From Escherichia virus ESCO5 (Duplodnaviria; Heunggongvirae; Uroviricota; Caudoviricetes), in IMG/VR virus record IMGVR_UViG_2974610597_000001: DNA of 64,000 nucleotides; one strand, written 5' to 3'. The notes under the pieces were generated by a model. That model worked only from the letters and a program-made list of their open reading frames with translations, was not told the origin of the DNA and did not search any database. Position numbers and translations under genes: made by a program. Positions 509 to 40,970 of the stretch are shown in pieces; positions within the stretch are counted from its first letter, which is position 1, and every line of letters starts with the position of its first letter.

Positions 509-988
509 ATGGAACTCAATAAAGATACACTGTGGGAACTCTTCAAAACCTTCGCTGGTTTTAAAGAGAATTCTGAATCCCAACAAGATTCTATACCATC
601 TCAAAAACCTGAAACTTTAGTCAAACAAAATAAATTTGATGAAGAAAAGATGCAGGTTATTGAGGTCTTGTATTGTCCACCTGAAGAAGACGATCTCCAC
701 GGAGAGCGCATGTCTGATTTGGAAATCAGGAAGATGGTTGACAACTTCAATGAGAATATTACCAACATTAGTGGTAATCTTGGTCACATGAAGAACACCG
801 ATAAGTTTTCTCCAATTAAAGCTTGGGTAAATGAAGTTGATTGTTACATTGGTGACGAACTCGTTGTGGAAGGAACTCCCCTCGTTAAAATCCAATTCAA
901 CGACCCTGAATTATATCAAGCTCGTAAAGACGGCGTTCTTAAAGGTTTGAGTATAGGCGCAATGGGCGTTAAAGTCAAGAAGGACTAA
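509..988 (+). CDS. hypothetical head-module protein (possible prohead protease or scaffold-associated)
   Basis: 159-aa ORF with RBS AAGAGG upstream, between probable portal and scaffold-like gene. Function assigned by position only. Confidence 0.5.
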   Translation: MELNKDTLWELFKTFAGFKENSESQQDSIPSQKPETLVKQNKFDEEKMQVIEVLYCPPEEDDLHGERMSDLEIRKMVDNFNENITNISGNLGHMKNTDKFSPIKAWVNEVDCYIGDELVVEGTPLVKIQFNDPELYQARKDGVLKGLSIGAMGVKVKKD

Positions 989-990
989 TC

Positions 991-2106
991 GTGGCAAATA
1001 CATATTTAACTAACGTAGACTTTTCAGGAAAAGCTACGGAAGAGTCACTAGGTGCTCATATTGCTTACACTTTTGATTTTCAAGGTGGAGCGGCATCTGG
1101 TTATAATACCCCCCTTTTATTTAAGTCAGACGGATCTCCAGACATAACTTTTGAAAAGTTAGAAGCTCTCACTAAAATGGGAGAAGATGTTACAGAGTTA
1201 CGTAAAAGCTATATTCAACAAGTGATGGATCGCATTTCTGAAAAAGTGCGTGAAAAATTTGAAGCTGGTTGGGATTGGGTTTACGTTATTGATGCTGACT
1301 TCGATGCGAACGTTGCAATTTTCTGTTCAGATAACGGTATGTTCTCTGTTGGCTTTAAAGTTGACGGACTGAATGTTGAAGTTGAAGAGGTTGCTAAACC
1401 TGTTGTTCGTGTTACTGATTATCAAGTTGTTGATGGTGATGTAATGATCTCCATTGATTTCTTTGAGGACGTTTTAGACGATGCTTTGAGTAATCTCGTT
1501 AAGAGTTCCTTGAAACAAAGTCAAGTTAAAGATTATTTAGTGAAAGCTCACGCTAAAGCTAATACAAACTCTGTGGATGCAGAGGCTAACCCCGCAGGTG
1601 ATAAATCTGCAAACACAACTGGAATCAATAAAGGAGAAACCCCTTTGGAAAATATCAACAAAGAAGAATTCCTGAAATCTGCTGAATTCCAAGAACTGAT
1701 GAAAGCACAGATCGCTGAAGCTGTAGAAAAAGCAGCCGCAGATGCACGTGCAGCCGCAGAACTTGAAGCACAGGAAAAAATCGCTAAGGCAGAACAGGAA
1801 GCAGAAGAACTTCGTAAAGCTGAACAAGCTCGTATCGAAGAAGAATATACAACTGTTGTTAAATCCTATTCTTTCGTAGAAGAAGACAAAGTTGAAGCTC
1901 TCGTTAAATATCTGGTAGATAATAAAGATATCGCTGAAACTATCGTCAAAGCATTCGAAAAAGCACGTGCAGAAGTGGACGCAGTTAAGAAAGAATTTGG
2001 AGCAGAACGTGGTGTTGATGTGATCAATACTCAACCTGTAGCTAAATCTTCTTCTGAACTGATTAGTCAGAAAGCTGCTGAACTTAAAAAAGCCCAGAAA
2101 CAATAA
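991..2106 (+). CDS. scaffold-like head assembly protein
   Basis: 371 aa with a long Ala/Glu/Lys-rich coiled-coil segment (AEAVEKAAADARAAAELEAQEKIAKAEQEAEELRKAEQAR); sits upstream of decoration and capsid genes. Confidence 0.5.
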   Translation: MANTYLTNVDFSGKATEESLGAHIAYTFDFQGGAASGYNTPLLFKSDGSPDITFEKLEALTKMGEDVTELRKSYIQQVMDRISEKVREKFEAGWDWVYVIDADFDANVAIFCSDNGMFSVGFKVDGLNVEVEEVAKPVVRVTDYQVVDGDVMISIDFFEDVLDDALSNLVKSSLKQSQVKDYLVKAHAKANTNSVDAEANPAGDKSANTTGINKGETPLENINKEEFLKSAEFQELMKAQIAEAVEKAAADARAAAELEAQEKIAKAEQEAEELRKAEQARIEEEYTTVVKSYSFVEEDKVEALVKYLVDNKDIAETIVKAFEKARAEVDAVKKEFGAERGVDVINTQPVAKSSSELISQKAAELKKAQKQ

Positions 2107-2125
2107 TCTTAGGAGATTAAATTAA

Positions 2126-2524
2126 ATGGCTAAAGGAATTACTTTATCTAACTCTCGCCAGGAATTCGGACACCTGGTTCTGGGTGGAGTGTTTAGCTCT
2201 GACCTTGGACACTGTGTACGTGAAGTTAACCTGGTTAAAACAGCAACCATGAAAATTGGTTCTATCCTGAAAGCTGACAACACTGAAGCTGCTAAAGCTG
2301 AAGCTGCCGATGCTGCTAAAGTTCTGATTTGGACTGATGCTCTGTTCGGTATTGATGATGTAGCAGTAGGTGACACTTTCACCGCAGTTGTTGGCGTACG
2401 TGATCTTACTCTGAACCGCTTTGCAGTATACTACAAAGATGGCTCCCTGGTAGATGACGCTGGCGTAGCAGCACTGGAAACACATGATCTGAAACTGACC
2501 GAAAAAGTCGTTTTCACTTCTTAA
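2126..2524 (+). CDS. head decoration protein (lambda gpD-like)
   Basis: 132 aa, Ala/Gly/Val-rich, directly precedes the capsid gene as D precedes E in lambda; RBS TAGGAGAT. Confidence 0.45.
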   Translation: MAKGITLSNSRQEFGHLVLGGVFSSDLGHCVREVNLVKTATMKIGSILKADNTEAAKAEAADAAKVLIWTDALFGIDDVAVGDTFTAVVGVRDLTLNRFAVYYKDGSLVDDAGVAALETHDLKLTEKVVFTS

Positions 2525-2545
2525 TTTTAATAGGAGATTAATATA

Positions 2546-3547
2546 ATGCCAGCAGTAATTTTAGATCAGGTTGTAGATTTCAGCCCTATGATCGAACTTC
2601 AGGATTCCCCTGATACACTGATTGCCAGCCTGAATCTGTTCAGCGTTGACTATCATTCAACTACCGCTATTGAAATCGGTAAAGAAAAAGCTGAAGATGC
2701 GCTGATCTCCGCTCGTGAGCGTGGTGGTGAGCGTAACTTCCTGACCATGAAAAATCCAGAACTGAAAGCGTTCCGTATTCCGTTCTTCCCTCTGGATAAA
2801 AACATCAAAGCTCAAGATATTCAATCTTTCCGTAGCTTTGCGATGGCAGGAATCAATGACTCTCTGCGCACAGACGCTGAAGTTGTTAACCGCTATATGT
2901 CCCAGATTCTGCGTGACGTAGCAAAAACCAAAGAGAAAATCTTTGCAGAAGCAGTTATGGGTCGTGCCTATAACGGCGTAGGTGGTGCAGCTAACTCTGC
3001 ATACAACTGGTATACCGAGTGGAATGCTACCCAGAAATCTGTTGCTGTAGACTTTGCTTCTACCACTGTTTCTCCAGCAGCCACTATCGAGCAAGAAGCT
3101 CGTGCTTACATCATCGATACTAAACAAGATGGCTCTACCGCTACTCGTATCGTAGCTCTGTGTTCTCGTGAATTTTTCGCATCTCTGGTTAACTCTCCAT
3201 TTGTTCGCCAGGCATATCAGTATTTCCAAGGAACTCCTAACCTTCTGCGTGACCGCCTTAGCGGTAACATGGATGTTCAGGTGTTCGAATGGAACGGTGT
3301 AACTTACATTGAAGATATCCACGGTAACATCCCTGCTGGTGAAGCATATGTTCTGCCTATGGGTATCGAAGGTATGTTCCAGGCGCACTACGCTCCTGCG
3401 GATACTCCAGAACTGGCTAACACCCAGGCTCGTGAACTGTATACCTTCATGATCAGCCAGCACCGCACCATTCAGCTTCAGTCTGAATTCTCGCTGCTCG
3501 CAGTTAACACCCGTCCAGAACTGGTAGTTAAACTGACTACGGCTTAA
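2546..3547 (+). CDS. major capsid protein (lambda gpE-like)
   Basis: 333 aa; size, position and C-terminal region (LANTQARELYTF) recall the lambda E family; followed by a strong hairpin. Confidence 0.65.
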   Translation: MPAVILDQVVDFSPMIELQDSPDTLIASLNLFSVDYHSTTAIEIGKEKAEDALISARERGGERNFLTMKNPELKAFRIPFFPLDKNIKAQDIQSFRSFAMAGINDSLRTDAEVVNRYMSQILRDVAKTKEKIFAEAVMGRAYNGVGGAANSAYNWYTEWNATQKSVAVDFASTTVSPAATIEQEARAYIIDTKQDGSTATRIVALCSREFFASLVNSPFVRQAYQYFQGTPNLLRDRLSGNMDVQVFEWNGVTYIEDIHGNIPAGEAYVLPMGIEGMFQAHYAPADTPELANTQARELYTFMISQHRTIQLQSEFSLLAVNTRPELVVKLTTA

Positions 3548-3567
3548 CAGAACTCTGTTAATATTAG

Positions 3568-3597
3568 AGGCTCGTCCGTGATGGGCGAGCCTTTTCT
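3568..3597 (+). terminator. hairpin terminator after the capsid gene
   Basis: AGGCTCG (3568-3574) pairs with CGAGCCT (3586-3592) across an 11-nt loop, followed by TTTTCTGTTT. Confidence 0.5.
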
Positions 3598-3631
3598 GTT
3601 TACAACAAGAGTTTACAATGAGGAGATTGAT

Positions 3632-3976
3632 ATGTCAAACCCAGAATTGAAACGTTACTTTAGTTATCACGAAATGATTCGTGATTTCGAATCGCTTTCA
3701 CCACTGATTGATGCTGATAAAACATTAGTATCTGCGCCACCAATGTCTTTCTATCTGAAAGATGGTCGTATTGCATTAGGTGGAAACTTCATTCACTTCC
3801 TCACACGTTTGAGAGAAGAAACAGGTATTCTTGTGCATCCTTTTGCAAGTGAAGAACACATGGGTTACTATCTTGTAAGTTACGAAGATTATGCACCTGT
3901 AAAAATCAAAGAAGAAGTTTTAAAAGTAGAAGCGGTAGACACTCCAGCTAAAAAACGTTCCCTTCGTAAAAAATAA
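3632..3976 (+). CDS. hypothetical protein (head completion or neck region)
   Basis: Start moved to the ATG at 3632, preceded by GAGGAG; the listed ATG at 3578 lies inside the terminator hairpin loop. Confidence 0.5.
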   Translation: MSNPELKRYFSYHEMIRDFESLSPLIDADKTLVSAPPMSFYLKDGRIALGGNFIHFLTRLREETGILVHPFASEEHMGYYLVSYEDYAPVKIKEEVLKVEAVDTPAKKRSLRKK

Positions 3977-3985
3977 GGTGGGCTT

Positions 3986-4534
3986 ATGCTGAATGCGGTA
4001 GAGTTGGCACCACTGATCCGAATTCTTGTTTATAACCCTTCTCAAGAAGTATTGCCAGATGCAATGCTGATTCAGATCATCCAGACTTGGATTGATATTA
4101 TAGGGAATGAAGATAAGGATAAGTGTGCAGTATTGTGGAACAGCTTGATTTCTGTTTTAGAGTATTTATGGAACAACGATGTTCTTAATAACAATACTCA
4201 AACAGGAGGGGCTATGTCTCGCAGAGAAAAGATGGGTGAAGTCGAAGTTGAAGTTAAATTTAACAACGGTCAAGTAACTTATAAGTCTCCGTGGGAAGAT
4301 ATTTATCATAACTATTTAAATGGTCTTATGGTTATTCCTGGGTGCACGGCAGGACGAGGAGCAACCAGTAAAGTTCTTATTGGTGGTGTTGATGCTCGTG
4401 AGATTGATCGAGTAAACAGCGATCCTAACTCTGTAAATGGTCTTGGTAATGTTGCAAGTGTTGATCGTAATACACGCAACGTTAATTATTTGCGAAATTA
4501 TGGACCTGTTTCTTTTTATCGTAGGGACAAATAA
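3986..4534 (+). CDS. putative head-tail connector protein
   Basis: 182-aa ORF in the neck region between capsid and sheath genes; by position only. Confidence 0.4.
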   Translation: MLNAVELAPLIRILVYNPSQEVLPDAMLIQIIQTWIDIIGNEDKDKCAVLWNSLISVLEYLWNNDVLNNNTQTGGAMSRREKMGEVEVEVKFNNGQVTYKSPWEDIYHNYLNGLMVIPGCTAGRGATSKVLIGGVDAREIDRVNSDPNSVNGLGNVASVDRNTRNVNYLRNYGPVSFYRRDK

Positions 4535-5022
4535 TGGAAAGTGAGATCTTACCAGGTGATGATACGGATTGGGAAACCATTATCAAAAAGATGATGGACC
4601 TTGAACAAGTTCAAATCGAAGCTGGTTTTTTAACAAACAAAAGGCATCCTGAATCAGATCTCACTATTCCTGCAATAGCAGCTATTCAACAATATGGTAA
4701 TGAAACAAATAACATACCTGCTCGCCCTTTTATAACAGATGGCGCTGTTATCTCACAGAACAATATCGCTAAAAAGATGAAGCAGGTGTTTGCAAATTAC
4801 TTAATGAATAATGTCGGGTTAGCTGTTTTTGAGCCTATAGCGAGAGCCTCTAGAGAAGGAATAGCTCAAGCGATTGCAATGCAACGTTATCGTCCTTTAT
4901 CTCCTGTGACAATTAAGATACGACAAGATAAAGGCAACTATTCTAATCATATCTTAATAGATACGGCACACATGATAAATGCAATCGAAACAAAAATCAC
5001 AAAAAGCAAGTCTAAAAAATAA
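4534..5022 (+). CDS. putative neck or tail-completion protein
   Basis: 162 aa; start overlaps the upstream stop (ATGA); position between head and tail genes. Confidence 0.4.
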   Translation: MESEILPGDDTDWETIIKKMMDLEQVQIEAGFLTNKRHPESDLTIPAIAAIQQYGNETNNIPARPFITDGAVISQNNIAKKMKQVFANYLMNNVGLAVFEPIARASREGIAQAIAMQRYRPLSPVTIKIRQDKGNYSNHILIDTAHMINAIETKITKSKSKK

Positions 5023-37396: not shown

Positions 37397-37588
37397 TTAA
37401 TCTTCCTCCAGATCAATTTCATTATAGCAATGTATGCAGTAGCCATCGTTGTGCATATGTTGTTCATAAGACATATCTTTACCACAAGACCAACAACGAA
37501 TATCGCCATCGTCCCATTCACGTTCTTCTTCGCCTTCAAATGCATCTGGTAGGTAAGGCATACCAAGACAATCTAAATCGTAATGCAT
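37397..37588 (-). CDS. small zinc-ribbon protein
   Basis: Start moved to the ATG at 37588 after AGGAGGAG; Cys pairs CWSCG and CIHC; acidic C-terminus. Confidence 0.4.
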   Translation of the reverse strand: MHYDLDCLGMPYLPDAFEGEEEREWDDGDIRCWSCGKDMSYEQHMHNDGYCIHCYNEIDLEED

Positions 37589-37637
37589 ATCTCCTCCTAT
37601 AAAGGGGCAGAAGCCCCTTATAAAACAATATGTTAGA

Positions 37638-40600
37638 TCAATGACAGGATGCCCAGGAATTACCCACGTCATATCCGGCAGTAAGCTGAACGTTAAGATT
37701 GTAAAATTCTCCAGCCTTAGTAACAGCTAAAGCAGCAAGTTCACCTGCCCGACTATAAGCTGTAAACCATCCACCTTTGGGAGATTCATGAATGTTAGCC
37801 CAAATTTGCCCTGTCTCTTTTTCCTTATTATGCTTCCATTCTTCAACTTTAGCAAGGCATTCTTTATCAATTTTCTTTTGTTCTTCAGGATCGTCTACTT
37901 TCTTCCAACCTAATGATTCAGGTGAAAACCATTTGAATTCTACAAGGTTACGAGAAACTTCAAGCTGGGCTTCATCGTGGTATGCAATCATTTGTTGCAC
38001 GAAGTCTTTATTCTTCCAGTCATCTTTAAAGAAGTCAACACTTAGTCCTTCTTCTTCGATCATATCGTCATAAATAACCATTGCACGTTTAGCACAGATA
38101 ACCCCACCACTTTGGAACAGAGAGTTAAGAATCGCGTGAGCAGAACGAGTAGGAACCTTACGACCGTCAATACCCAAAACATACTGTTTACCAGTCTTAA
38201 CCCAGAAATCGTTTAAACGTTCTTTAAGACGCGCCAGTGGGAATGCAGCTTCCCAGAAAGCATCGAACACCAGTTGCCCTGTAAACTTATCGCTACCAAT
38301 TGTTTTAGCAACCTTGTCGGCTTGTGCACCATAGGTAATACCATACTTAACAGATTTAGCAGGACTACGTTCAAATTTACGTCCAATAGTTTCAGTGATA
38401 CGTTTTGCCATCATGGTATGAACATCGTTAGGCTTCTCTAACAAGAGAGCGTTACAGTATTCATGAGGCTCCGGTTCGTAGCGCCAACAGTTTCCTGTGA
38501 TGGTAATGCAGTCTTTCTGACGCATGACCCACGTACCAAGTTCTGTTTGTGGACACCAAACATCCTCTACACCCCACTCTTCAATAGTCAAACTTTGAAC
38601 AGGAATGTGAGAGCGGTTAGCCAATGTTACCACTTTTACTTTCTGCTCTTTTGTATTGAAAGCTACAGAGATATTGCCTCCATGCACCAGGTACGAGGCA
38701 GTTAAAGCTGCTTCAAAAAGTTCACCTGGGTTCTGCGCCCAACGCCAAACAGGTTTTTGTTTATGTTCATGCCAGTAACCATCTGCAATCAAGAAACCTT
38801 CCAAGAAAGCTACACGCTCGGCATGAGACATATTAACTACACGCTCTACCCACGGAACATCCCATTTACCTTGTTGAACAGAAGTTAAACTATTTACCTG
38901 ATCTTGTTCCATGTTAAATGGAGCATTACAAATAATATTATCTCCTGTGCAAAGCTCGGCAGTTGTTCTGACTTTAGGCACATAAGTATTCCCTTTACTA
39001 CGGGTATTAACATACCAACGGTGATCTGCTGTTGCACGGTAAGTGTGTGATTTCCCTTTAATCTCAAACGTCTTACTATTTTTATAGAAGACCTTACCTT
39101 TTACTTTAGTCCATTCTTTCAGACCTGTTTCAGCATTGTACCCTAAAATCTCATCCCCTTCCTTCAGGTCGTGATATCCTACCCAACCTTTACGAGTCAA
39201 AGCTTGAGCATCCATCGGCACACAGTAATGCGACTCAATCTTTGCTTCCAAAGAGTCGAAGTCATAACCGATCTGGAAATATTTAGGAACTTCTACACCA
39301 AACAAGTTACGCATCTCCCATCCAAACAAAGATGTGACACGAGGGATATTGGCTACAGACCTATGCTTCATACGAGAGGTTGCAGCATCACATGTAGCGG
39401 CTGGGGTAGGAATACGCCCATCTGCCCTTACTGCGGCTAAGAAACCTTTATCGTATTCTTGATCTTCTTCATCTTCTTCCCAATCAGCACCGCCACCTAA
39501 AATAGAGTTCCTACGATGCTTATACGTTAAGTATTCTACAATCTGAGTAGCATAAGGAAATTTCTCACCCAAAGCTTGCAGGTTAGGACAGATTTCTTTT
39601 TCCTGACCTTTGGTAAAACATGGGTTAGTCAATACTTTAAGACCGCGACCTTTACCTTTTGCTATACGCTCTTGAATCTTCCTTTCCAAGGTTTCCGGTG
39701 CGCACTCCAGATGATCACAACGGTCCTGACAAAAATTAGAAGATAAAGTTTGCTCAACGTAAGCTCGAATACCTTTCTGAAGTTCTTCCTCACTCTTTTT
39801 AATCTTGGTGCCAGATTTAAGAGTCAAATCTTTATCTTTATATTCCGATGGTACCCAACCTAATCCTACAAGCCAGTTTTTAATATGGGTTGTATCGTTC
39901 AATGTCGCAGGGATGTTAGGATCACACAGAGGCTCATCTGCTGCAACTGGCAGTTTCCACTCTTTCCCCAACATAACTAACCACCAATCGCCATCCCTCT
40001 CTTCCAAATGACCATCATGTTTTTTAGCAAAATTGATCATATGGTTAGTTGGTTCGAGGTTCTTTTTAATTTGCAATTTAGGCGGAATAAAAGCTTTAAG
40101 ATAACCTTTTGTTGCTGGTTTAGGTGGCAAAATAGGCTCAACGAGTAAACGAAGACGCTCCATTTCTGCATCCAAAAAAGCAAGGTTCTCTTCTGCTTGC
40201 TTCATATTAAAAGCAAACCCACGGTGTTCCTGGCGCGTGATAATGTCTGCTACACGTTGTTCAAGTTCAAATGGACCTTCCCATTTATCATAATCACCCC
40301 ATTCTTCCATAAGGTAGTTATATACGCTCGTATTGGCTTTGTTGTCATAGATACAGTAATAAAGCATATCCGCAGCAAAAGTCTTAAATCGATCTTCTTC
40401 TGGAATCTCTTTACGGAAATCTATTTTTACATCACCACCTGCTTTTCGAGAAAGTGCTGCCAAGCTATGTCCTGATTTGCCCTCAATCTTTCGATCTGGG
40501 TTTAACACTTTACTCAAAATCAAGGAGTCAATAAGTTTTACCTTATTTTTGCCCCACGTATTATATTTAACACTGTAATCTAATCCATAAAACAGTTTTG

Positions 40601-40970
40601 TAGCCAACCAGTCGTAGTTGATACCGTTGTGAGCCACAGCCATTTCAACCAGATATTCAGGCTTGTCTTTAAAATAACCTTCATGATTAATAAAGTCTGG
40701 GAAATCTTTTAGTTGAAAATGCGTGTAATCTTGCGCCACATACTCTTTAAGAACATATGTATATTTACCATCTGACTCTTCATAAGGACGCCCATCAAAG
40801 ATGTATTTAGGGCCATCGTGGAAAGCTACTATTTCTCCTGTTTCATGGTTCTCTAAGACAATACAGTGCATTTGAAATGTGTCTTTGAGACGATAAGGAC
40901 TAGCTAAATAATCAATAGTGTCATTATTCAACAATCCGTTTGCTTCAATATCCCATGTAAACTTACTCAC
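37638..40970 (-). CDS. family A DNA polymerase with 3'-5' exonuclease domain, interrupted by a putative intein
   Basis: Exo motif DIEANGL; motif A DFDSLEAKI (res 571-579), motif B RSPAKSVKYGITYG (869-882), motif C YHDE (997-1000); about 250 extra residues between motifs A and B. GTG start overlaps the upstream TAG. Confidence 0.9.
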   Translation of the reverse strand: MSKFTWDIEANGLLNNDTIDYLASPYRLKDTFQMHCIVLENHETGEIVAFHDGPKYIFDGRPYEESDGKYTYVLKEYVAQDYTHFQLKDFPDFINHEGYFKDKPEYLVEMAVAHNGINYDWLATKLFYGLDYSVKYNTWGKNKVKLIDSLILSKVLNPDRKIEGKSGHSLAALSRKAGGDVKIDFRKEIPEEDRFKTFAADMLYYCIYDNKANTSVYNYLMEEWGDYDKWEGPFELEQRVADIITRQEHRGFAFNMKQAEENLAFLDAEMERLRLLVEPILPPKPATKGYLKAFIPPKLQIKKNLEPTNHMINFAKKHDGHLEERDGDWWLVMLGKEWKLPVAADEPLCDPNIPATLNDTTHIKNWLVGLGWVPSEYKDKDLTLKSGTKIKKSEEELQKGIRAYVEQTLSSNFCQDRCDHLECAPETLERKIQERIAKGKGRGLKVLTNPCFTKGQEKEICPNLQALGEKFPYATQIVEYLTYKHRRNSILGGGADWEEDEEDQEYDKGFLAAVRADGRIPTPAATCDAATSRMKHRSVANIPRVTSLFGWEMRNLFGVEVPKYFQIGYDFDSLEAKIESHYCVPMDAQALTRKGWVGYHDLKEGDEILGYNAETGLKEWTKVKGKVFYKNSKTFEIKGKSHTYRATADHRWYVNTRSKGNTYVPKVRTTAELCTGDNIICNAPFNMEQDQVNSLTSVQQGKWDVPWVERVVNMSHAERVAFLEGFLIADGYWHEHKQKPVWRWAQNPGELFEAALTASYLVHGGNISVAFNTKEQKVKVVTLANRSHIPVQSLTIEEWGVEDVWCPQTELGTWVMRQKDCITITGNCWRYEPEPHEYCNALLLEKPNDVHTMMAKRITETIGRKFERSPAKSVKYGITYGAQADKVAKTIGSDKFTGQLVFDAFWEAAFPLARLKERLNDFWVKTGKQYVLGIDGRKVPTRSAHAILNSLFQSGGVICAKRAMVIYDDMIEEEGLSVDFFKDDWKNKDFVQQMIAYHDEAQLEVSRNLVEFKWFSPESLGWKKVDDPEEQKKIDKECLAKVEEWKHNKEKETGQIWANIHESPKGGWFTAYSRAGELAALAVTKAGEFYNLNVQLTAGYDVGNSWASCH
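38490..39224 (-). other. putative intein (Hint domain with LAGLIDADG-like motif) inside the DNA polymerase
   Basis: Residues 583-827: N-terminal Cys, block-B-like TADH, LEGFLIADGYW, C-terminal ITITGN followed by Cys +1. Confidence 0.55.

Follow-up and report, generated by a model that had tools for sequence, protein, structure and literature searches.

A probable mobile intein with a single LAGLIDADG half-domain in the family A DNA polymerase of Escherichia virus ESCO5

We analyzed a 64,000-nucleotide (nt) stretch of DNA from Escherichia virus ESCO5 (IMG/VR virus record IMGVR_UViG_2974610597_000001; hereafter, the window), in which a family A DNA polymerase gene on the minus strand carries an in-frame insert of 735 nt, encoding 245 amino acids (aa). 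We conclude, with a probability of roughly 85%, that this insert is a mobile intein. Judged from sequence, it is very likely to be an intein that is competent to splice, and homing driven by its own endonuclease has about even odds. In the mechanism that we favor, translation would yield a polymerase precursor of 1110 aa, with the insert splitting the palm domain immediately behind motif A. The insert would fold as a Hint domain and, with chemistry provided by Cys1, the block B Thr and His, Asn245 and the Cys that follows it (Cys+1), would excise itself, joining Tyr582 to Cys828 by a normal peptide bond. The product would be an 865-aa polymerase essentially identical to the intein-free enzyme of phage phAPEC8. 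Between the two splicing lobes lies a LAGLIDADG half-domain, through the helix of which two inteins would most likely pair to form a two-site homing endonuclease; in a mixed infection, polymerase alleles without the intein would be cut by this enzyme and repaired with the intein-bearing copy as template, which would spread the element. The features concerned are as follows, in window coordinates.

37638..40970, minus strand: family A DNA polymerase precursor gene, 1110 aa (N-extein of 582 aa, intein of 245 aa, C-extein of 283 aa), called from the open reading frame (ORF) and Pfam DNA_pol_A.
39225..39266, minus strand: polymerase motif A region, Y569-DFDSLEAKIESHY-582, called from the sequence, with the intein directly after Tyr582.
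38490..39224, minus strand: predicted intein, Cys1 to Asn245 (735 nt, 245 aa; residues 583-827 of the ORF).
38913..39224, minus strand: predicted N-terminal lobe of the Hint domain, intein aa 1-104, including Cys1 (39222..39224); beta-rich in the model and aligning with the natural mini-inteins P0005, P0008 and P0009.
39015..39032, minus strand: block B, T65-A-D-H68-R-W70 (Thr B:7, His B:10, Trp B:12), from the family alignment, numbered after Tori et al. 2010.
38610..38864, minus strand: single LAGLIDADG half-domain, intein aa 121-205, helix-helix-strand-strand-helix-strand-strand in the model.
38775..38813, minus strand: LAGLIDADG helix, V138-AFLEGFLIADG-Y150, with a putative catalytic Asp148-Gly149 (D148 in 73 out of 75 and G149 in 74 out of 75 family members).
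38490..38609, minus strand: predicted C-terminal lobe of the Hint domain, intein aa 206-245, with blocks F and G.
38544..38561, minus strand: block F, V222-W-C224-P-Q-T227, from the family alignment.
38490..38510, minus strand: block G, C239-ITITG-N245, from the family alignment.
38487..38489, minus strand: Cys+1, first residue of the C-extein and predicted splice-junction nucleophile, called from the sequence; also Cys in intein-free phAPEC8, and Thr in phage nepoznato.
38322..38369, minus strand: polymerase motif B, R868-SPAKSVKYGITYGAQ-883, intact; this is "site b", the insertion point of a different, related intein in other phages.

The host gene was called a family A polymerase in an earlier sequence-only reading of the window, and we agree. 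Its ORF matched Pfam DNA_pol_A with an E-value of 2e-11 (43.8 bits against a cut-off of 34.3), and both motif A (DFDSLEAK) and motif B (RSPAKSVKYGITYG) are present in the 1110-aa ORF, with motif B 40 residues downstream of the insert's end. We take the motif A call to be a match to the Klenow/T7 pattern D-[YF]-S-x-[IL]-E-L-R. Compared with ESCO5 (Phapecoctavirus, Stephanstirmvirinae), the polymerase showed 99.9% aa identity, and the extein DNA and the intein DNA were each 100% identical. The insert starts with CVPMDAQALTRKGW, ends with ITITGN followed by Cys, and contains no stop codon in frame. Where the sequence-only reading had placed about 250 extra residues, right after motif A, we found 245 in frame after Tyr582 (38490..39224). 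It had also proposed comparison with intein-free homologs, and this revealed a clean insertion: the phAPEC8 polymerase gene, 2598 nt long, lacks precisely these 735 nt and is 97.6% identical in DNA sequence to the window gene. With 38490..39224 deleted in silico, A424T was the sole difference between the encoded protein and the phAPEC8 polymerase, and the genes differed at 63 of 2598 nt. The observation named beforehand as speaking against an intein, that homologous polymerases carry the segment as an integral part, is contradicted by polymerases that are 97-98% identical and lack it.

We surveyed this polymorphism by a search of 50,697 phage records with the spliced gene, in which we inspected the match spans of the 60 best records, all of which had at least 95% nt identity. 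Among these, about 20 distinct Phapecoctavirus genomes carried the 735-nt insert and about 27 did not, the nearest intein-free one being ESCO13 (98.1% identical); three genomes (AV126, ukendt and nieznany) had a larger insert elsewhere in the polymerase gene. The same polymorphism was present in Justusliebigvirus, with a flank identity of 98-99%: phi92, PaulScherrer, UAB_1 and PD06 carry the insert, and EmilieFrey, alia, outra and Paula lack it. More than 30 independently isolated, laboratory-propagated phages have the intein within their polymerase gene, and from so many viable isolates we infer that the precursor must mature. The two records for VEcB disagree: OZ035773.1 ("Justusliebigvirus VEcB", 148,885 bp) has the intein, and MT932211.1 ("Escherichia phage VEcB", 147,702 bp) lacks it. 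The disagreement probably reflects a species-level label on a different isolate, and could also reflect gain or loss during propagation. The product name "DNA polymerase, part I" in intein-free Justusliebigvirus was considered as a sign of a second interruption and rejected, as the gene of phage alia is a complete 2580-nt polymerase and the name was inherited from a database match.

That the insert is a Hint-domain intein, as had been read from its sequence, is borne out by the clean insertion, by a structural model matching solved inteins, by relatives in unrelated host proteins and by the intein label on the PaulScherrer record in GenBank. A search of a large protein collection retrieved nine relatives at first and 255 with an E-value of at most 1e-3 when the alignment of those nine was used. 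The AlphaFold2 model of the intein, built from an alignment of 78 relatives, had a mean predicted local distance difference test score of 92.8 and a predicted template modeling score of 0.90. A Hint fold is present in this model, and its top Foldseek matches in the PDB were all inteins, including TliVMA, PI-SceI, PhoVMA and the Ssp DnaB mini-intein. Each sequence element named previously, namely Cys1, TADH, LEGFLIADGYW (aa 141-151) and ITITGN followed by Cys, was found in place: block A begins with Cys1, block B has Thr-x-x-His in the form T65-A-D-H68, and block G ends in Asn245 followed by Cys+1. The proposed comparison with intein blocks likewise came out in favor, with blocks A, B, F and G conserved in more than 100 relatives within unrelated host proteins. 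In the family alignment, C1 and V2 were each present in 73 out of 73 sequences, T65 and H68 in 76 out of 76, W70 in 73 out of 76, and V222, W223, C224, T243, G244 and N245 each in 77 out of 77. All 113 complete relatives end in T-G-N, followed by Ser (109), Thr (3) or Cys (1).

These relatives occupy several sites and host proteins. A second intein, of 324 aa, lies inside motif B (site b) of the nepoznato polymerase (MN850571, coding sequence [CDS] 1105..4674; KSVKYG/C...TLTGN/CTYGAQ, with slashes marking the junctions), and the 324-aa motif B insert is also found in ukendt, nieznany, AV126, phiWec187 and three records labeled Campylobacter phage. At the site used in the window (site a), nepoznato-type phages have no insert and read ESHY-TWRYDNP, with Thr for Cys; the window reads KSVKYGITYGAQ at the motif B site, and no record among those listed carries inteins at both sites. 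Motif B is the common site of the family in metagenomic polymerases (...YA/TLYGAG), and site a recurs in three distant polymerases with Thr at position +1 (...HY/TYKYDNG or ...HY/TWRYDNG). Other extein hosts are the TerL and portal proteins of Gordonia phages, Mycobacterium phage Pinkcreek gp135 and the polymerase of Pseudomonas phage KIL1; the portal record of Gordonia phage Lahirium is annotated "contains intein". In small proteins, the relatives are found at the junction FDVYP/.../SAYANG. Most relatives (among metagenome proteins P0002-P0122) lie in such small proteins, some of them matching Pfam DUF5872 or DUF6321, with the extein motif FDVYP-SAYANGWAAK. Three insertion points fall within about five residues of each other there (VYP/SAYA, SAYA/SGAL and SAY/SNSY), and this clustering suggests a hot spot for insertion in a protein with no assigned function.

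A penultimate His is common in inteins and not obligatory; here, the residue is Gly244. The sequence-only reading had suggested that this Gly may affect C-terminal cleavage, a concern that the family does not support, as Gly is invariant at this position (77 out of 77) and functional in the Bethlehem gp51 intein. Mycobacteriophage class 1 inteins often have Gly, Lys or Ser in place of the penultimate His, and changing Gly to His in the Bethlehem gp51 intein (G316H) makes the precursor accumulate (Kelley et al. 2016, PMC5050341). The AceL NrdHF intein lacks a penultimate His, yet splices within minutes. Because Gly is invariant in the family and functional exceptions are documented, we see no reason to expect impaired C-terminal cleavage.

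Between the splicing lobes, the model places helices at intein residues 125-131, 134-148 and 168-180 and strands at 149-152, 159-164, 185-189 and 197-201. The predicted structure therefore contains the alpha-beta-beta-alpha-beta-beta core of a LAGLIDADG domain, and its interface helix ends in an acidic residue and Gly (FLIAD148-G149). Downstream of this helix, after strand 2, Q164 is conserved in 74 out of 75 family members. The best structural matches of the half-domain model were PI-SceI, WhiA and I-CeuI, with probabilities of 0.99-1.0 at E-values of 0.013 or higher. In the 324-aa nepoznato intein, it is the second LAGLIDADG domain to which the half-domain aligns; the first has no counterpart in the window intein. 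Natural mini-intein relatives (142-163 aa) lack intein residues ~105-205.

The sequence-only reading had described the endonuclease core as "compact or degenerate". Compact is apt, since there is one half-domain. Degenerate is doubtful because Asp148-Gly149 and Gln164 are conserved, the ratio of nonsynonymous to synonymous substitution rates (dN/dS) is low, and the single-domain size is kept across relatives; the sequence evidence indicates that the endonuclease part is probably not degenerate. Relative to phi92, dN/dS was 0.022 for the whole intein and 0.039 for the LAGLIDADG domain; relative to Klebsiella phage KP13-16, dS was saturated, leaving dN alone usable. A single-domain size (239-263 aa) was found in about 78 out of 113 complete relatives and, in a search with the domain alone, in at least 44 out of 45 complete polymerase inteins (cluster representatives with at most 50% identity). 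Domain number was judged by intein length here, as the hidden Markov model of the half-domain finds only the second domain of two-domain relatives. The informative matches of the domain-alone search were all embedded in inteins, with no free-standing endonuclease among them. Dimers of single LAGLIDADG domains are known for intron-encoded enzymes such as I-CreI. One domain provides half an active site; by analogy with I-CreI, the simplest working model would therefore be a homodimer of two inteins, with a nickase as the alternative.

The distribution of the intein between genomes points to mobility. Relative to other intein-bearing Phapecoctavirus, the intein showed 99.2-100% nt identity and the exteins 96.0-98.3%. 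Relative to PaulScherrer (Justusliebigvirus), nt identity was 91.7% for the intein, 74.7% for the exteins and 82.7% for the 150-nt flanks. The Justusliebigvirus copies among the matches listed, which do not include PaulScherrer, were 97.6-98.8% identical in aa sequence to the window intein. These sequence comparisons show lateral spread of the intein between genera. The KP13-16 copy, with 90.6% aa identity and saturated silent sites, is by the same kind of evidence older.

Variation in the exteins reached 16 variable sites per 100 nt at extein nt 1701-1900, versus a typical 4-12 elsewhere, and was equally dense at the 3' end of the gene. Within about 100 nt of the junction (39225..39290 and 38424..38489), silent variation was about twice as dense as over most of the gene. 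Two discrete flank haplotypes were seen on either side, and the change from one to the other falls 6-9 nt from the junctions. The intein sits on at least three combinations of these, namely on window-like flanks on both sides in ESCO5 and Ro121c4YLVW, on a phAPEC8-like and a window-like flank in REC, and on phAPEC8-like flanks on both sides in WPEC1, anhysbys and ECO340P2. Alleles without the intein are found on both flank backgrounds; among them, ESCO13 and ev052 have the same junction haplotype as the window. Repeated gain or loss with short conversion tracts would fit this pattern.

Several observations weigh against a splicing and homing intein. The case for splicing is indirect, and curated profiles give little help: Pfam Intein_splicing (PF14890) scored 16.3 bits on the insert, below its cut-off of 35.8, and the NCBIfam and PHROGs profiles matched the intein with no family. 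(At an E-value of at most 0.01, PF14890 matches 18 out of 78 family members.) Pfam LAGLIDADG_3 also stayed below threshold, with an E-value of 0.14 and 12.9 bits versus a cut-off of 22.5 at intein aa 137-169 (residues 139-171 of a 248-aa query starting two residues upstream of Cys1). The window intein has one LAGLIDADG domain, whereas the nepoznato, KIL1 and actinophage TerL and portal inteins, at 324-354 aa, have room for two. The dimer model finds no support in a partner half-domain, as neither a free-standing copy nor a second intein of the family was present in the 64-kb window. A symmetric homodimer is not favored by the intein-free target, which was no more palindromic than shuffled sequence and matched at best 5-6 of 11 positions, where the mode of the shuffles was 6 (window-spliced and phAPEC8 sequences, 25 centers, 11-nt half-sites, 2000 shuffles), a test that is not decisive either way. 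We found no description in the literature of a single-motif LAGLIDADG enzyme in an intein. The mosaic flanks could also be explained by ordinary phage recombination. Finally, the window covers 64 kb of a genome of about 149 kb, which cannot establish that this is the only polymerase gene.

Some of these points also favor the most serious rival account, in which the intein splices and its endonuclease is dead: the half-domain would be the remnant of a two-domain enzyme, and the element would be inherited vertically and spread by ordinary recombination in co-infections. We regard this as a real contender that falls short of even odds. Related inteins do have two LAGLIDADG motifs (nepoznato, 324 aa) or greater length (KIL1, 331 aa), the window half-domain aligns only with the second nepoznato domain, the target lacks palindromic symmetry, recombination mosaicism extends across the whole polymerase gene, and precedent for a single-motif intein endonuclease was not found in the literature. 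Against this account, the single-domain layout is kept in about 78 of the 113 complete relatives and at least 44 of the 45 representative polymerase inteins, Asp-Gly and Gln are conserved in 73-74 out of 75 sequences, and dN/dS in the domain, at 0.039, is about equal to that of the splicing lobes. Natural mini-inteins show that inteins can lose the domain, and some reason for keeping it is therefore required. Between the two genera, moreover, the intein is much less diverged than the exteins.

A second alternative concerns the chemistry. Trp70 lies two residues after the block B His, Cys224 lies 21 residues before the terminal Asn, and Thr243 lies two before it, together forming the Trp/Cys/Thr (WCT) triplet of class 3 inteins; the C224/T243/N245 spacing equals that of C124/T143/N145 in the class 3 MchDnaB1 intein (H65/W67). 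Cys224 was assigned to F:4 by this spacing and by the pattern of strands in the model; a phmmer search of the C-terminal 50 residues against PDB sequences, intended to bring blocks F and G into register with class 3 inteins, returned chance matches only. The best match of a PDB profile search was the class 3 AceL NrdHF intein (E-value 1e-5), followed by NrdJ-1 and Spl DnaX, which we take to be class 1. Inteins of class 3, by the published signature, also have no N-terminal nucleophile and carry Ser or Thr at position +1 (Beyer et al. 2020; Tori et al. 2010). In this family, by contrast, Cys1 is invariant (73 out of 73); position +1 is Cys in the window and Ser in 109 out of 113 relatives. Three of the 37 WCT inteins of Tori et al. 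2010 have Ser1 or Cys1, and Beyer et al. 2020 hold that class 3 cannot easily evolve from class 1. The combination of Cys1, WCT and penultimate Gly was also observed in the Gordonia TerL and portal inteins and in Pinkcreek gp135; the KIL1 polymerase intein has Cys1, HkW, the block F Cys and T-G-N, but Cys at position +1.

Splicing by a class 3 or mixed route, in which the first attack on the N-terminal junction would come from Cys224 rather than Cys1, giving an intermediate branched at block F, with transfer to residue +1 to follow, is an unlikely account of these residues. Cys1 is invariant, which argues from sequence that it is used in splicing; class 3 by definition demands that there be no N-terminal nucleophile, and here there is Cys1, with Cys at +1 as well. 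The next-best PDB profile matches, NrdJ-1 and Spl DnaX, are not named class 3 and so indicate no specific class 3 affinity, and the class 3 inteins of mycobacteriophages were absent among the tblastn matches. The class 3 signature is present, and we do not claim a class 3 mechanism.

A further reading, that the polymerase contains an integral accessory domain that does not splice, or is a pseudogene inactivated by the insertion, is very improbable. Intein profiles below their thresholds, and the labeling of the whole ORF as DNA polymerase in most GenBank records, would suit such a reading, but polymerases 97-98% identical in DNA lack exactly this segment, its relatives sit at splice-like junctions in unrelated proteins, it has a predicted Hint fold with all splice-site residues, and it splits the palm, lying between motifs A and B. 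A pseudogene is ruled out by strong purifying selection and by the many viable isolates. Least probable of all are a group I intron and a free-standing homing endonuclease gene: the related insert of KIL1 is annotated as an intron-like two-piece join, but the window insert is in frame with no stop over 735 nt and has a Hint plus LAGLIDADG protein fold, and Rfam and tRNA scans of the 64-kb window returned no family above its gathering score, introns included, and no tRNA genes, which leaves no intron alternative. In the KIL1 record itself (KU130126, polymerase CDS 737..3844), the segment between the two joined pieces is an in-frame 331-aa intein of the family, located in motif B (RKDGKT/CLPVD...TITGN/CNYASVYNAG).

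Directly after the polymerase gene, a 91-aa ORF on the minus strand (37397..37672) overlaps its 3' end by about 35 nt. This ORF is rich in Cys and His, and its CWSC...CIHC resembles a small zinc ribbon. The phAPEC8 annotation has two short hypothetical genes instead of this ORF directly downstream of the polymerase gene.

More tentatively, and on balance doubtfully, the mobile intein of the window may belong to a large, previously uncharacterized clade of phage inteins that combine a dimer-dependent (or nicking) endonuclease of one half-domain with Cys1 and the class 3 triad. Its members would number at least 44 polymerase inteins (cluster representatives with at most 50% identity) and about 70 inteins in small proteins of the DUF5872/DUF6321 type. 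If so, a homing endonuclease of one half-domain would act only upon dimerization, or would nick, for which we found no description among inteins; and a clade in which Cys1 coexists with the class 3 triad, a penultimate Gly and, mostly, Ser at +1 could represent an intermediate between class 1 and class 3, deemed evolutionarily implausible by Beyer et al. 2020. Both observations could be of interest to intein specialists if borne out by experiment: a 245-aa intein with one half-domain would offer a natural test of homodimeric intein endonucleases and a compact scaffold, natural pairs of phages with and without the intein (such as ESCO5 and ESCO13) suit direct measurement of homing, and a family with Cys1 and the class 3 triad gives an experimental handle on the origin of class 3 splicing. 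The Pfam, NCBIfam and PHROGs models largely miss the family, and many carrier polymerases and small proteins are probably misannotated as a result. For ESCO5-type annotations, the gain is at most a correction of "putative DNA polymerase/3'-5' exonuclease domain", the kind of polymerase label, with no mention of an intein, that the ORF bears in ESCO5 and most other records.

Among known systems, the closest is the element itself, which is already known at the annotation level in PaulScherrer and SD2; in that respect it is a textbook intein of a phage replication enzyme that brings no new biology. The PaulScherrer record (Bas60; GenBank MZ501100, QXV83779.1) names the product "intein-containing DNA polymerase precursor" and gives a 735-nt intein as a mat_peptide; SD2 (PQ821640) has the same product name. 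Maffei et al. 2021 (PMC8594841) devote one sentence to the matter, stating that comparative annotation and genomics let inteins be delimited precisely. Beyond that sentence, we found nothing in the literature on the phi92 or Phapecoctavirus polymerase intein, including any experimental study, and nothing specific on family A polymerase inteins. The PaulScherrer mat_peptide (MZ501100 3232..3966) is shifted by one codon, starting at VPMD and ending at TGNC. Because identical TGT (Cys) codons flank both junctions, the boundary cannot be placed by comparative genomics; the mechanistic boundaries are Cys1 to Asn245. The PaulScherrer and window inteins share the insertion point (ESHY/C...TGN/CWRY), the length of 735 nt and 91.7% of their nt, and differ in their host, a polymerase of another genus with exteins 74.7% identical in nt.

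The 324-aa motif B intein belongs to the same family (about 31-33% aa identity) and shares the host gene, the CVP start, the block F FC.ST and the TLTGN followed by Cys, but it lies 56 extein residues downstream and has two LAGLIDADG motifs (FLGWLLSDGYY and FLEAFWMADGH). The Gordonia and Pinkcreek inteins share Cys1, T..H.W, WCP.T, T-G-N followed by Ser or Thr, and the penultimate Gly, and differ in their length (324-354 aa, with room for a full endonuclease) and host proteins. The Bethlehem gp51 intein is likened to the window intein by one residue alone, the penultimate Gly, which is functional there. The class 3 inteins (MP-Be DnaB, MchDnaB1, Msm DnaBi1 and AceL NrdHF) have no nucleophile at position 1, whereas the window family has an invariant Cys1 and, here, Cys+1. 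I-CreI, I-MsoI and I-CeuI, which are weak structural matches, resemble the window intein in that each chain has a single alpha-beta-beta-alpha-beta-beta domain, an interface helix with a terminal Asp-Gly, and a conserved Gln following strand 2; they are free-standing, intron-encoded enzymes with partly palindromic targets, whereas the domain in the window is part of an intein and has a target that lacks symmetry. PI-SceI, PI-PfuI, PI-PkoII and TliVMA have two LAGLIDADG domains per chain, some with extra DNA-binding regions, whereas the window intein has one, within 245 aa.

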